Shown: piece after piece, positions 414 through 3,996 of the stretch
Layout of the letters: the number at the start of each line of letters is the position of its first letter
Position numbering within the stretch: position 1 is the stretch's first letter
Assembly: GCA_032249395.1 (NCBI GenBank)
Contig: JAVVFY010000013.1
Coordinates: 1 to 13,474, forward strand
Reading direction: 5' to 3'
Source of the DNA: Candidatus Aenigmatarchaeota archaeon
Lineage (GTDB): Archaea > Aenigmatarchaeota > Aenigmatarchaeia > CG10238-14 > SpSt-28
DNA length: 13,474 bases
Notes under the pieces: generated by a model
Seen by the model: only the letters and a program-made list of their open reading frames with translations
Told to the model about the DNA's origin: nothing
Databases searched by the model: none
Program-made: the position numbers and the translations under genes

Positions 414-458
414 CTCAAGGCAAGGTTGATTCTAAATGCCTTAGAGGTGGGTGCCGCC
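414..458 (-). other. 3' strand of the 16S pre-rRNA BHB processing stem
   Basis: RNA CCCACCUCUAAGG-CAUU-UAG-AAUCAACCUUGCCUUGAG pairs with the 5' leader CUCAAGGUAAGGUUGAUU-GAUG-AUA-CCUUAGAGGUGGG (3953-3996): 4-bp central helix with two 3-nt bulges, a canonical BHB. Confidence 0.93.
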
Positions 459-500
459 TTGCACACAAAACTAAGGAGGTGATCCAGCCGCACCTTCCAG

Positions 501-583
501 TTGCCGGGTCGGTAAAGTTAAATCACCTCCTTACTCATCATTCGTCAGAGTCAAGCCATTATATCATCTACTTTACCAACCCT
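501..583 (-). ncRNA. 83-nt BHB intron after ~A1513 (helix 45); putative box C/D guide RNA
   Basis: Terminal stem GGUUGGUAAAGU/ACUUUACCGACC, central helix GCCG/CGGC (relaxed BHB); removal restores GCCGUA|CUGGAAGG. Inside: AUGAUAU(561-567)-guide-CUGA(545-548)-CGA-AUGAUGA(535-541)-guide-UUUA(519-522). Confidence 0.88.
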
Positions 584-715
584 TACGGCTACCTTGTGGC
601 GACTTAGCCCCCCTCGCGGAGCTCCCACTCGACCCTTTTGGGGCCTCGAGGGAGCTCCACTCGGTTGGCTTGACGGGCGGTGTGTGCAAGGGGCAGGGAC
701 GTATTCGGCGAACGT

Positions 716-802
716 GTTCATGGTGGCAAGATGATCTTTGGCTCTATTTCCTCATCTTTTAATCTGGAGTAGTGCATGCTAATCATTCTCACCTTACCAC
801 CA
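716..802 (-). ncRNA. 87-nt BHB intron after ~A1363 (helix 43 loop); putative box C/D guide RNA
   Basis: Canonical BHB: GGCGAACG-UCAU-CA^U-GGUGGUAAG / CUUGCCACC-AUGA-AC^A-CGUUCGCC. Inside: AUGAUUA(780-786)-guide-CAGA(763-766)-UUAA-AAGAUGA(752-758)-guide-AAGA(735-738). Confidence 0.9.
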
Positions 803-960
803 TGATGACGTTCGCCTACTAGGGATTCCGGCTTCACGAGGGCGAGTTACAGCCCTCGATCCGAACTGGGCGCGCTTTTAGGGGATTTGCTCCCCCTTTC
901 GGGGTGGCATCCCATTGTAGCGCGCATTGTGACGCGCGTGTGGCCCAGGGCTTTCGGAGC

Positions 961-991
961 TTTCGCCGAGAGAGCCAGCAGCTCAGCTCGT
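961..991 (-). other. 31-nt BHB-like mini-intron after U1205
   Basis: Interrupts the conserved GGUCCGUAU|GCUCCGAA; bulges AU^A and AA^G, imperfect central helix CCGU/GCGA, intron helix CGAG/CUCG then GAGC/GCUC. 1205 is a known archaeal 16S intron site. Confidence 0.88.
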
Positions 992-1288
992 ATACGGACC
1001 TACCGTCGCCCCCTCCTTCCTCCCACTTATCGCGGGCAGTCCCCCATGAGTGCCTCCCTTCCGGAGAAGGGAATGGCAACATGGGGCGGGGGTCTCGCTC
1101 GTTAACCGACTTAACGGCACGCCTCACGGTACGAGCTGACGATGGCCATGCACTACCTCTCGGCTCGTCTGGTAAGGTCTTCAGCCTGACCTTCATCCTG
1201 CCGTCAGCCCTGGTAAGATTCTCGGTGTTGAGTCCGATTGAACCGCACGTCCCACCCCTTGTGTGCCCCCCCGCCAATTCCCTTAAGT

Positions 1289-1338
1289 TTGGTGTAGGGG
1301 GAAGCACACCCTCTAGCCAATTCTGGCTTCGCCCCAAA
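1289..1338 (-). other. 50-nt BHB mini-intron after A908
   Basis: AAG-GGUG-AA^U... / ...CACC-AA^A-CUU; removal restores GUGAA|ACUUAAG. 908 is a known archaeal intron site. Confidence 0.92.
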
Positions 1339-1449
1339 TTCACCCTTGCGGGCGTACTCCCCAGGCGGCCCGCTTAACACTTACGCTCCGCCACCGCACG
1401 CTCCCGAAGAGCGTGCGACAGCAAGCGGGCATCGTTTACGGCTAGGACT

Positions 1450-1553
1450 TTCCCGCATGAGTTAGAGAAAATCCTAGCCATATGGGAGCAAATCATATAT
1501 CAGAGGATTAGATATTCCTCATCTTTAGAATCGGAAGATACCCTAACTCATGT
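1450..1553 (-). ncRNA. 104-nt BHB intron after ~U801; putative box C/D guide RNA
   Basis: CCCG-GU^A-CAUGAGUUAG / CUAACUCAUG-CGGG-AA^A; removal restores AUACCCCGGU|AGUCC. Inside: AAGAUGA(1519-1525)-guide-CUGA(1500-1503)-UAU-AUGAUUU(1490-1496); no clear D box. Confidence 0.88.
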
Positions 1554-1632
1554 ACCGGGGTATCTAATCCCGATTGCTCCCCTAGCTTTCGCCCCTCACC
1601 GTCGGACCCGTTCCAGGCAGCCGCCTTCGCCA

Positions 1633-2327
1633 CTCACCCAGCAGGAGTCATATCATATTGCTAAGCTTTTTAATTTTTTCTGGGTGGAAAATTGTAATTT
1701 TTTCTCGAAAATTACGAAAATTGTTATTGCCTGTTATCCAAAATCTTAGAGAAATAACCTCAATTCCATTCTTTTTTGTTTTTAATTGATCATGTTTGAC
1801 AGTTGATGCCTTTATTCCCAAATCATCCAACATTTGAATTATTTGGAGGAGATATCTTTCTAAATCAGGTCTTAACTCTATAATTTTTGATGCTTTGAAC
1901 ACTATTTGTTTTGAATTACTTGAATCTCTAAAATATCCCTCATCATCAAATATTGCACCAAGAAATGAAGACTTTATTTTATCATCTCCTTTAAAGATCC
2001 ATTCAGGTATTGTAGTTGGTTGAGTAATTTTAGAACCAATTGGCGCGCCTCTTTCTGAAAGAAATTTTCCAACTCTGCTAGGGTATTGATACCTTAATAT
2101 TCCTCCTATAGAAGTCCCTACATTGTATTTGATATTACCGAAAGTTTTAATTACAAGTTCTTTGACTTTTCGTTGAAGAACATTGTTGGAATTTGTATAG
2201 ACGAAGTAATATTTGGTTTTATGGATTGAAGCATCGCCAAAGACATGACCAATCAATCTGGCAATCGCTGTTTCTCTCTCCATAAACTGTTTTTTAATGT
2301 TTATTTTAATTTTCTGACTCCTGCTGA
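1633..2327 (-). mobile_element. 695-nt BHB intron after G722 carrying a homing endonuclease gene
   Basis: CACC-AG^U-CAGCAGGAGUCA / UGACUCCUGCUG-GGUG-AG^U; removal restores CACCAG|UGGCGAAGG. AT-rich interior containing an ORF. 722 is a known archaeal intron site. Confidence 0.93.
1648..2283 (-). CDS. Intron-encoded two-motif LAGLIDADG (DOD) homing endonuclease
   Basis: Motif 1 ARLIGHVFGDASI, motif 2 SSFLGAIFDDEGY, intein-type IPEWIF segment, C-terminal F...I.IFHPEK..KL. Confidence 0.9.
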   Translation of the reverse strand: MERETAIARLIGHVFGDASIHKTKYYFVYTNSNNVLQRKVKELVIKTFGNIKYNVGTSIGGILRYQYPSRVGKFLSERGAPIGSKITQPTTIPEWIFKGDDKIKSSFLGAIFDDEGYFRDSSNSKQIVFKASKIIELRPDLERYLLQIIQMLDDLGIKASTVKHDQLKTKKNGIEVISLRFWITGNNNFRNFREKITIFHPEKIKKLSNMI

Positions 2328-2362
2328 CTGGTGGTCCGCATGGGATTAACGGATTTAACCCC

Positions 2363-2485
2363 TTAGGGTGGATAGTGCAGTCTAAACACTAAAATAGAAT
2401 ACACTCTAGACTATGAGCTAAATCTTAATTCTAAAAATCATTTCATCGCATAAAAGCTCAAAGGTACGCACACTACACTATCCAT
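2363..2485 (-). other. 123-nt BHB intron after ~A687 (helix 23); possible degenerate C/D-like RNA
   Basis: GGGG-UA^A-UGGAUAGUGUAGU / ACUGCACUAUCCA-CCCU-AA^G; removal restores GGGGUA|GGGGUUAAAUCC. Only 35 nt of exon separate it from the 722 intron. Confidence 0.9.
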
Positions 2486-2986
2486 TACCCCATGCGTACC
2501 GCTGCCCTCTCCCGGTCCCGAGCCTGGTAGTATCCCAGGCAAGCCCTGCAGTTTGCTGCAGGATTTCACCTGGGACACACCAAGCCGGCTACGGGCGCTT
2601 TAAGCCCAATAATCGTGACCACCACTCGGGGCGCGGGTATTACCGCGGTGGCTGGCACCCGTCTTCCCCACCCCTTCCTCGCCCTCCCGTTTTCAGAGGG
2701 CAACAGCCCCAGCAGAGCTGGGGCACTCCGGGTCCCCTCGTCGGGCGTTAGCCCATTGCGAAGGTTTCGCGCCTGCTGCGTCCCGTAGGACCTGGGCTCA
2801 TGTTTCAGAGCCCATCTCCGGGCTCCCACTCTCATGGCCCGTAGGCGTTATCGGCTTGTCGGGCCATTACCCCGACAACAACCTGATACCCCGCAGTCCC
2901 ATCCTCGGGCGGCTACGAACACCCTTTGAGGATAGGGGCCTTCCAGCACCCTATCCCTATGGGGTATTAGCCCCAGTTTCCCGGGA

Positions 2987-3790
2987 TTATCCCCATCGGG
3001 CTACCTGTAAAGCTAAGGCAGAAAGATCGTTAATAAAAATAAAATCAAAAGCGTCTTTTAACAACTCTTGTTGATATGGTGTTATTGGCAAATTTGAAAA
3101 CAAAACTAATACTGAAGTTATTTCTGGATAAAGTTTTTTTAATCTAAAGCCTCTTAGTGCAACTCTTTCAATTATTGCATATCTGTGAGAGTATTTTGTT
3201 GATGAAGTAGAGGTAACAAGAATTGCTATTTTCTTTTTTGGAATGAAAATATCTACATTTATTTTTCCCACATATTTGTGAACTTCAATATCGCTTTCGC
3301 TAAGACCACCGTTTTTAAGGTATTCTATTACTTTCTTTTCGTCTTCTCTCACTATTTCTCTTCTTGCTGCTTTTTCTAGTATTTCGCGATAATTGTTTGA
3401 AGAAATATAGTTGATTATGCTTTTTCTTATTTTGTTCTTAATTTCTTCTCTTTTTTGAGGAAAGAATATCTTCTCCAGATTTGTATAGAAAAGTTTGTCA
3501 ACATCTTTAGAGTGGCTTATAGTTTCGATGGTCTCTTGAATGAAAGCCATTAATTTTTTTAATTTTGTATGATTTCTAATTTGCTTAATTCTACCACATT
3601 CGTAATCGCTGATTGATGGATCTACGTTTCTCTTAAAATCTTCTTGCTTAATTCCTCTGAGTATTCTAAAAATCTTTAGGCATTTTGGATTTGTTTTGAT
3701 ATAATCTTCGTTTATTTCTTTGAAATTATTTGTCGCTTTTTTGACTTCGTTGAACAATTTTATTACTTCGCTTATATTCGAGTTTACCAT
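2987..3790 (-). CDS. Intron-encoded protein: XRE-type HTH plus C-terminal PD-(D/E)XK/Vsr-like nuclease fold (candidate non-LAGLIDADG homing endonuclease, possibly inactive)
   Basis: LKIFRILRGIKQEDF...SISDYECG resembles HTH_3; EKKVIEYL...IEVHKYVGKINVDIFIPKKKIAILVT resembles a restriction-endonuclease-like core. The linear stop codon lies in the exon, beyond the 3' splice site. Confidence 0.7.
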   Translation of the reverse strand: MVNSNISEVIKLFNEVKKATNNFKEINEDYIKTNPKCLKIFRILRGIKQEDFKRNVDPSISDYECGRIKQIRNHTKLKKLMAFIQETIETISHSKDVDKLFYTNLEKIFFPQKREEIKNKIRKSIINYISSNNYREILEKAARREIVREDEKKVIEYLKNGGLSESDIEVHKYVGKINVDIFIPKKKIAILVTSTSSTKYSHRYAIIERVALRGFRLKKLYPEITSVLVLFSNLPITPYQQELLKDAFDFIFINDLSALALQVARWG

Positions 3791-3833
3791 ATCTTAAATA
3801 TGGTGAAATGTATTTAAAAGCTTTACAGGCAGT
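2995..3833 (-). mobile_element. 839-nt BHB intron after ~G144 carrying an ORF
   Basis: CCU-CGGG-AG^A-CUGCCUGUAAAGCU / AGCUUUACAGGUAG-CCCG-AU^G-GGG; removal restores CCCUCGGGAG|GGGGAUAAUCCCGGGAAAC. Confidence 0.93.
3811..3826 (-). promoter_or_regulatory. Putative intron-internal BRE/TATA promoter for a leaderless transcript of the intron ORF
   Basis: GTAAAGCTTTTAAATA; the TATA centre is ~25 nt upstream of ATG 3790 and closely matches the rRNA promoter AAAAAGCTTTAAATA. Confidence 0.5.
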
Positions 3834-3952
3834 CTCCCGAGGGTAGGTTGACTGCGTATTACGGAGCAGGTCGCCGAGGGCCTTCCCCTCACGACTTGCA
3901 TGGCTTAGCCGGACCCGGATAGCAGTGGCCTCTGGCGGGATCAGCCAGAATT

Positions 3953-3996
3953 GGCGGGCCCACCTCTAAGGTATCATCAATCAACCTTACCTTGAG
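3953..3996 (-). other. 5' strand of the 16S pre-rRNA BHB processing stem
   Basis: Inverted repeat of 414-458, forming the canonical BHB. Confidence 0.93.

Follow-up and report, generated by a model that had tools for sequence, protein, structure and literature searches.

A small intron in helix 45 of an Aenigmatarchaeota 16S rRNA gene probably hosts a box C/D-type guide RNA related to Nanoarchaeum equitans sR13

The closest described relative of the element considered here is the sRNA sR13 of Nanoarchaeum equitans. According to the sections of Seistrup et al. (2017; PMC5389701) that deal with it, sR13 is complementary to 16S rRNA positions 1405-1415 (D' guide) and 1531-1540 (D guide). Stoichiometric Am1408 and Am1409 are reported there for N. 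equitans by MALDI-MS and RiboMeth-seq, Am1408 is attributed to the D' guide, and the anti-Shine-Dalgarno sequence carries Am1534, which is linked to sR13. N. equitans lacks the RsmA/Dim1 checkpoint, and the same sections propose that sR13 takes its place by binding across helices 44 and 45. Dennis et al. (2015; PMC4644070) likewise list a predicted methylation at the A1408 position for N. equitans and S. acidocaldarius. A1408 is a known, experimentally supported site for sR13-type guides, and Am1408 directed by a guide RNA is already known from N. equitans.

Guide RNAs within introns have been described in Euryarchaeota, where a C/D sRNA resides in the pre-tRNA-Trp intron (Haloferax volcanii and, as sR50, Pyrococcus; cited in PMC7994747). 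The part of this 2021 review that treats genomic context lists intergenic, tRNA-adjacent and tRNA-Trp intron settings for C/D sRNAs and names no rRNA host. A literature search, in which the string 'C/D' was unsearchable, returned no paper that places a guide RNA within an intron of archaeal rRNA. Some archaeal rRNA introns of the bulge-helix-bulge (BHB) type carry ORFs; to our knowledge such introns have been described as ORF carriers or as functionless, and not as carriers of methylation guides.

The window, a stretch of 13,474 nt, is contig C13 of a 753-kb Aenigmatarchaeota genome (25 contigs, 89.5% complete), and its DNA was found in hot-spring metagenomes. It contains a 16S rRNA gene whose last insertion is the intron that bears the guide:

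474..3951, minus strand: 16S rRNA gene, interrupted by six or more introns
583..501, minus strand: 83-nt BHB intron in the 5' strand of helix 45, after E. coli A1513

The Rfam model RF01959 matches 474-3110 (1004.9 bits) with large unaligned insertions. The real 5' end of the gene lies near 3951 (AUUCUGGCUGAUCCCGCC... / AUUCUGGCUGAUCCCGCCAGAGGCC...), versus 3110 by Rfam, and standard models badly mis-delimit the 16S genes of these DPANN archaea. RNA splice joints in the gene were identified at 500/584, 715/803, 1448/1553, 1631/2327 and 2362/2486. The 23S rRNA gene is located on another contig (C11:2247-5935); it is 3689 nt long versus a 2987-position model, which indicates roughly 700 nt of insertions.

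Several further features of the 16S gene were recorded. The first ~120 nt are set apart by a ~829-nt intron with a long open frame (about 3003-3831, minus strand), and the RNA runs have zero depth across 3032-3125. A 5' leader (CCUUAGAGGUGGGCCCGCC) and a 3' trailer (GGCGGCACCCACCUCUAAGG) form a processing stem (window 435-459 and 3952-3972). One 925-nt RNA contig (run X16) joins 435 to 2994 with 141 unplaced letters between; this length fits a circular pre-16S joint of about 21 nt of leader plus the ~120-nt 5' exon. All three RNA runs show removal of introns of 695 nt (1632-2326; joint 1631/2327) and 123 nt (2363-2485; joint 2362/2486), and low-depth RNA and DNA contigs extend across the 695-nt intron. 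The ~829-nt and 695-nt introns may carry ORFs.

A 104-nt intron (1449-1552, minus strand) near 16S position 800, spliced in RNA contigs, contains a C/D-like cassette that reads AUGAGGA, AUAUCUAAUCCU, CUGA, UAU, AUGAUUU, 12 nt and CUAG. Its D' guide forms 10 bp with the exon segment GGAUUAGAUA (1570..1561) just upstream, with N+5 at the first U (about E. coli U788). This position-800 guide also occurs in 16S introns of genera g1, g4, g11 and g17, and free-standing canonical C/D sRNAs of family f3 use it as their D guide. An 87-nt intron (716-802, minus strand) in the 3' major domain, whose joint 715/803 is present in two RNA runs, contains AUGAUUA followed by GCAUGCACUACU; its segment CAUGCACUAC pairs over 10 bp with 16S 1156..1147, and the other boxes are poor.

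The initial annotation had placed a methylation guide in an intron at 1513, and this placement agrees with the RNA. Joint 500/584, which skips the 83 nt, occurs in all three metatranscriptome runs, from three studies (X15, X16 and X17), with flanking pieces of 66, 66 and 30 letters, respectively, and no mismatches, including 39 nt of species-specific trailer. In the DNA run X3 the joint was not found, and an unbroken contig spans 400-913. Also present in X17 are two short RNA contigs of intron sequence alone. The RNA evidence consists of assembled contigs, in which joints are visible, and not RNA ends, abundance or circularity. Six of eight genus-mates have a matching intron in their DNA, with 83-93% identity within the genus and changes located mostly in loop and stem. 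The intron is real.

Its ends form the motif cleaved in archaeal splicing:

589..586, minus strand: GCCG, exon half of the central BHB helix (E. coli 1509-1512), paired with CGGC at 506..503
506..503, minus strand: CGGC, intron half of the central BHB helix, 4 bp with GCCG

Bulge 1 is formed by U585, A584 and A583 (plus G582) and has 3 nt if G582 is paired and 4 nt if it is not; bulge 2 is formed by A502, A501 and C500. The motif is a 4-bp helix with bulges on opposite strands, as in archaeal BHB introns, and cuts after the second bulge nucleotide on both sides give the joint 500/584. Once the intron is removed the sequence reads GCCGUA^CUGGAAGGUGCGGC, and helix 45 is then regular, with GGAA as its loop; the spliced helix predicted from the cuts is GCCGUA-CUGGAAGG-UGCGGC. 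By BHB enumeration, the same central helix and bulges are found in 8 of 12 other sequences with an intron at this site (L003, L005, L007, L016, L024, L045 and L050 have this solution; the script favoured others in L019, L044, L048, L074, L083 and L112). The genome encodes two splicing-endonuclease homologues (PF01974, 93.9 and 79.6 bits) and the ligase RtcB (572.9 bits).

On the minus strand the intron and its borders read GCCGUA / AGG GUUGGUAAAG UAG AUGAUAU AAUGGCUUGACU CUGA CGA AUGAUGA, followed on the D side by GUAAGGAGGUGAU UUAA CUUUACCGACC CGGCAA / CUGGAAGGUGCGGC. The parts of this cassette are:

581..571, minus strand: GGUUGGUAAAG, 5' arm of the terminal stem, 11 bp in MFE and centroid folds
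567..561, minus strand: AUGAUAU, C-box equivalent, 12 nt upstream of D'
560..549, minus strand: AAUGGCUUGACU, D' guide spacer, 12 nt
548..545, minus strand: CUGA, D' box, invariant columns in 31 aligned sequences
544..542, minus strand: CGA, 3-nt D'-C' loop (K-loop)
541..535, minus strand: AUGAUGA, C' box, 3 nt after D'
534..522, minus strand: GUAAGGAGGUGAU, D-side spacer, of which 533..522 pair with the 16S 3' tail
521..518, minus strand: UUAA, degenerate D-box position (or UUUA at 522..519)
517..507, minus strand: CUUUACCGACC, 3' arm of the terminal stem (folds and genus comparison)

The combination of D' CUGA and C' RUGAUGA across a short loop is that of archaeal box C/D sRNAs, and both spacers have the usual length of about 12 nt (12 nt at 560..549; 12-13 nt at 534..522/523). 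CTGA-N2-8-RTGATGA occurs only three times on both strands of the 753-kb genome, and no boxes are present on the plus strand of 535-567. The guide, D' and C' coordinates given initially, and the D'+5 arithmetic, are exact on the minus strand. That annotation thus had the boxes and the D' guide right, but it missed the C- and D-box-like ends, the 11-bp closing stem, the anti-Shine-Dalgarno guide and the degenerate D box.

The 11-bp stem closes the sRNA and at the same time serves as the inner helix of the BHB motif. In genus-mates it reads GGUUAGCAGAGA / UCUCUGCUAAC(U)C, so that both sides have changed and pairing is kept. The loop at 542-544 also drifts within the genus (CGA, AAA, UUG, UUA, UCA), and among cassettes in general the D'-C' loop and the closing stem vary.

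The D' guide faces the decoding site:

674..666, minus strand: target 1, 16S GUCAAGCCA, E. coli 1405-1413 (A671 is A1408, A670 is A1409)

Its segment UGGCUUGAC (558..550) complements GUCAAGCCA (674..666) at every position. Counted upstream from D', the fifth nucleotide (N5) is U553; it lies opposite A671, and alignment to the invariant CCCGUCA identifies A671 as E. coli A1408. Pairing extends over N2-N10, a run of 9 bp that includes N+5, where at least 8-9 bp are expected of a guide. Complementarity to 1405-1413 and the assignment of D+5 to A1408 (window 671), both claimed at the outset, are confirmed. A longer match elsewhere, named then as an observation that would overturn the assignment, was not found in 16S and 23S rRNA (6.3 kb, introns included): the 9-mer is the best Watson-Crick run covering N5, and the next best is 7, in 23S. 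The genome has just two complements of the D' guide of 10 and 11 nt, on contigs C20 and C2; they are in DNA without an Rfam match and were rejected as targets. Shuffled guides reach at least 9 bp in 1106 of 20000 trials (16S and 23S; p about 0.055). On its own, the 9-bp match is at chance level and not significant. The identity of the guide is settled by comparison with homologues.

Homologues were collected with an exact pattern (GGCTTGACTCTGA, 2-8 nt, TGATGAG) in 185,579 genomes, one per prokaryote species. Among the 46 loci found, 28 are inside the 3' part of Aenigmatarchaeota-type 16S genes, nine inside a tRNA gene and one on the Nanoarchaeum equitans chromosome (Kin4-M). The other eight are unrelated loci without the second guide and were dropped from all counts: L022 (Desulfobulbaceae), L054 (Legionella) and six loci from Nitrososphaeraceae, in which the upstream guide differs and GGAGGUGA is absent. 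A pattern that left the D' guide unspecified (boxes plus GGAGGTG) matched 47 of 371 genomes of the phylum, and its reversed control none; one locus that matched boxes plus guide 2 (L113, in G296) has an unrelated guide and was dropped. A sequence-only model, built from 31 of 47 distinct sequences (near-duplicates and one chance match left out), matches 82 of the 118 genomes of the Aenigmatarchaeota order to which the window belongs, and 28 of the 34 high-quality ones.

The sequence at the N. equitans locus is a classic C/D sRNA and carries both of the guides seen here. With D' directed to 1405-1413, D directed to the anti-Shine-Dalgarno sequence and shared sequence between them, the cassette is, on this comparison of sequences, a homologue of N. 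equitans sR13.

Within 43 distinct cassettes, guide positions N2-N6 are invariant, as is the register of the guide relative to D', and the D' box itself is wholly or almost unchanged. Position N7 tracks 16S position 1410. The pair is C-G in most; all four genomes with A1410 have U at N7; with G1410, two genomes have U (G.U) and the rest C; and both genomes of genus g4 combine C1410 with G at N7, a transversion on both sides. Alignment of homologous introns, and a comparison of the guide with the variable bases 1409-1413, had been suggested as a check, and this covariation (U-A in four genomes, G-C in two) is its outcome. The genome also encodes the core proteins of C/D RNPs, namely fibrillarin (234 bits), Nop5 (210.6 bits) and L7Ae (96.7 bits). 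The initial proposal of intron-guided Am1408 is therefore supported by guide conservation, covariation with 1410, homology to sR13 and the presence of genes for the core proteins; it named the right target but did not mention that the modification is already published for this sRNA family. Am1408, via the D'/C' side with its perfect boxes, is the only modification that our comparisons predict with good support in this genus.

The second guide is directed to the 3' end of the same rRNA:

483..472, minus strand: target 2, 16S 3' tail AUCACCUCCUUA, E. coli 1531-1542, anti-Shine-Dalgarno

Positions 533..522 are a perfect 12-nt complement of AUCACCUCCUUA, and 12-bp runs with the tail were reached by 3 of 20000 shuffles. 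The guide tracks the tail among genomes: CCUCCUUA occurs with UAAGGAGG, and in genus g4 tail CACCAUAAA comes with guide UUUAUGGUG and tail CACUACAAA with guide UUUGUAGUG. The pairing is 12 bp here versus 8-9 bp in family f2. We considered GGAGGUGA as the Shine-Dalgarno sequence of an intron ORF and rejected it, as there is no downstream start codon or ORF in the 83-nt intron; the change of this spacer with the 16S tail in genus g4 also contradicts such a role.

In the sister genus g2 (seven genomes), the cassette was found in none by pattern, and the model gave one weak match (E = 0.0039). Six 16S sequences of this genus (L006, L008, L009, L010, L012 and L014) have 3' ends of the form GGAUCACUCAGC... 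or GGAUCCCUC..., without CCUCC, and read GUCACGCCA at 1405-1413 (C1409).

Taken together, the comparative data contradict the view that the cassette is a chance resemblance or a decaying relic, in which an AT-rich intron happens to contain CUGA, AUGAUGA and a 9-mer. The chance level of the 9-bp match (p about 0.055), the degenerate D box and a tRNA-Ser(UGA) intron of the same genome that looks like a decayed copy would all be in keeping with such an origin. It is nevertheless very improbable, given that 43 distinct cassettes retain the boxes and both guides, with matches in 82 of 118 genomes, and given compensatory changes in both guides, a 12-bp tail match reached by 3 of 20000 shuffles, and an intron 83-93% identical within the genus that changes mostly in loop and stem.

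The outer boxes are less regular than the inner ones. The C-box equivalent AUGAUAU fits RUGAUGA at positions 1-5 and not at the last two; the family consensus is AUGAWAA. Over the 43 distinct cassettes, C-box columns 1-4 are A in 32, U in 33, G in 33 and A in 37, the rest being mostly shifted by one base. The C' box is fixed by the extraction pattern in that set; in the 31-sequence alignment its sole change is AUGAAGA, in two g4 rows. The G of the D box is present in 36 of the 43, replaced by A in six, all from the genus of the window (g1), and by U in one. The six g1 cassettes read UUAA or UAAA at this position, where a terminal CUGA would be canonical; elsewhere the D box is mostly UUGA in Aenigmatarchaeota and CUGA in N. 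equitans. C-box position 6 is A (40 of 43) and D-box position 1 is U (41 of 43) in Aenigmatarchaeota, and these are G and C in N. equitans; the joint difference is in keeping with a kink-turn and speaks for the guide reading.

Because the D-box G is replaced by A and the C box reads AUGAUAU, the terminal kink-turn in g1 would be non-canonical, with A.A where the second sheared G.A pair belongs. Kink-turns of the A.A type can still fold with L7Ae; in archaeal sRNPs, efficient methylation requires both the C/D and the C'/D' motifs. The D-side N+5 nucleotide is A1534 in N. equitans and C1535 in family f2, and here it would be C1535 if the box is UUAA or C1536 if it is UUUA. As the D box lacks its G, D-side methylation in this genus seems doubtful, and what is conserved on the D side may be pairing with the tail rather than one methyl group.

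RsmA/Dim1 was not found in the genome of the window (89.5% complete), where the sole PF00398 match is a methyltransferase of the GCD14/Trm61 type. Across the 118 genomes of the order, which are incomplete MAGs, 59 have a PF00398 match at E <=1e-5, and only one (G093, 1.7e-53) has a match stronger than 1e-10. In the rest of the phylum, about 160 of 253 genomes (rough count) have a match at E <=1e-20. The cassette and RsmA occur together in two genomes, G069 and G093. By these profile searches the order appears to be largely without RsmA/Dim1. Other families of the phylum, e.g., f22, f24 and f25, have weak PF00398 matches alone.

These observations bear on the possibility that the cassette is a former methylation guide that now acts by pairing only, as an antisense clamp or timer until splicing and as an RNA substitute for the RsmA/Dim1 checkpoint. 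Such a clamp would hold apart the top of helix 44, the anti-Shine-Dalgarno tail and the 5' strand of helix 45, and a role of this kind is proposed for sR13 in the sections of Seistrup et al. cited above (PMC5389701). The D box is degenerate in 6/6 g1 cassettes and the C box is weak, the tail pairing is 12 bp here against 8-9 bp in f2, the BHB takes up helix 45 nucleotides 1509-1512, and the genome lacks a detectable RsmA/Dim1 in an order with a strong PF00398 match in one of 118 genomes. However, D' CUGA and C' RUGAUGA are unchanged throughout the genus whereas the 3 nt of loop that separate them vary, a pattern expected of an L7Ae-fibrillarin site and not of a simple antisense RNA, and the register of the guide to D' is invariant. 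We regard loss of the methylation function as unlikely, and the clamp and methylation roles are not exclusive.

The favoured reading is that the 83-nt helix-45 intron hosts a box C/D-type guide RNA of the sR13 lineage, which we consider likely on the sequence evidence. We infer RNP assembly, methylation of A1408, action in cis or in trans, and circularisation along the following lines. L7Ae would bind the perfect D'/C' K-loop and recruit Nop5 and fibrillarin, either in the precursor or after excision, and the excised intron is probably circular. The D' guide would pair with 16S 1405-1413, and fibrillarin would 2'-O-methylate A1408 and possibly A1409, as in N. equitans, while the other spacer would pair with the anti-Shine-Dalgarno tail at 1531-1542. 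The 5' strand of helix 45 would be held in the BHB motif, and therefore helix 45 would form only after the endonuclease and RtcB remove the intron.

The cassette is not confined to one position. The 35 distinct 16S 3' regions divide among sites as follows (the count for 1513 includes the window):

E. coli 1491-1493: 9 distinct sequences
E. coli 1497-1500: 9 distinct sequences
E. coli 1513: 16 distinct sequences
E. coli 1520: 1 distinct sequence

All four sites fall in a stretch of about 30 nt around helix 45, with one target on either side, and at each a BHB motif (read partly by hand) gives back the consensus without intron. The register that the script chose for the 1491-93 and 1497-1500 sites was off by one and would give products 2 nt too long; the register read by hand restores the consensus. 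The other host is the anticodon-loop intron of tRNA-Ser(UGA), as called by ARAGORN for seven of the nine tRNA loci (the intron-bearing tRNA-Ser genes were found with -i, and none without intron mode). Twenty further loci comprise 13 in tRNA-Ser(UGA) by ARAGORN, two of the same kind called Ile and five in 16S. Cassettes hosted by the tRNA occur in families f3, f4 and f5, in f1-g3 and in part of f2. There is clear evidence that the cassette moved between the tRNA intron and at least four 16S positions.

The genome of the window has a tRNA-Ser(UGA) gene (C5:26684-26803) with a 33-nt intron that reads ...GACUCAAGGA CUGA UUAAA AUGAAGA, i.e., a D'/C' core-like sequence without guides. This intron may be a relic of the tRNA-hosted copy found in relatives. 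Four genus-mates (L003, L004, L005 and L007) have an extra intron of ~59 nt near 16S 1501, between GUCGCCAC and AAGG, which contains AAUGAUGA and is absent from the genome studied here.

The distribution among hosts raises the possibility that the sRNA acts mainly in trans after excision, with the intron as an expression vehicle whose 16S position has no role in assembly. The same cassette works as a free-standing gene in N. equitans, as the published account of sR13 describes it, is carried by tRNA-Ser(UGA) introns at nine loci plus 15 of 20 further loci, and is represented by intron-only RNA contigs in X17. Against this, the four 16S sites are clustered between the targets, which is unexpected for a neutral landing place. 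We think a mainly trans-acting role very unlikely; it would be a refinement of the favoured reading rather than a contradiction of it.

A broader interpretation is more tentative. The BHB introns of 16S and tRNA-Ser(UGA) in this order could be interchangeable, mobile carriers of C/D guides from at least two unrelated families (sR13-type around helix 45, and a second around position 800), each in 16S introns beside its own target, with the helix-45 intron as a checkpoint in cis; we see this as possible, and not as probable. If it were true, the decoding strand of helix 44, the anti-Shine-Dalgarno tail and half of helix 45 would be clamped until methylation and splicing, and the intron would stand in for an RsmA/Dim1 step apparently lost across the order. 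Co-occurrence of the cassette with loss of RsmA/Dim1 appears to be a new observation; it offers a second phylum in which the 'RNA-guided checkpoint' published for sR13 as an idea can be tested.

In comparison with N. equitans sR13, the cassette shares the D' core GGCUUGACU followed by CUGA, a 3-nt loop and RUGAUGA, as well as the D-side GGAGGUGA. Both RNAs are directed to 16S 1405-1413 (Am1408) and to the anti-Shine-Dalgarno tail, and RsmA/Dim1 appears absent from both organisms, insofar as the cited sections cover N. equitans. Whereas sR13 stands alone as a gene and has canonical C and D boxes, the cassette of the window is an intron in its own target rRNA, its C and D boxes are AUGAUAU and UUAA, and its D-side register is off by 1-2 nt. 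Two points appear to be new here: each guide is tied to its target by natural covariation, and the cassette has moved among a tRNA intron and four or more sites in 16S.

The archaeal rRNA introns of Thermoproteales and other groups resemble the intron of the window in having a BHB motif, in removal by EndA followed by ligation, and in occurring several to a 16S gene. What appears to be new is a box C/D guide that is at the same time an intron of the archaeal rRNA it targets; small rRNA introns thereby gain a function. Eukaryotic intron-encoded snoRNAs are alike in that they are rRNA-methylation guides cut out of an intron of the host transcript. They differ in that they lie in spliceosomal Pol II introns, are released by debranching and exonuclease, and have a host that is not rRNA, whereas the intron of the window is freed by BHB cleavage. 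The tRNA-Trp intron guide, as presented in the portion of the review cited above, is likewise a BHB intron that itself serves as a C/D guide for its host RNA, and excision by the tRNA splicing endonuclease is a shared feature; by contrast, its host is tRNA-Trp, it targets C34 and U39 of that tRNA, and it belongs to an unrelated guide family. On the rRNA side, the intron of the window can be viewed as the equivalent of the tRNA-Trp intron guide, and among prokaryotes as a parallel to intron-encoded snoRNAs.
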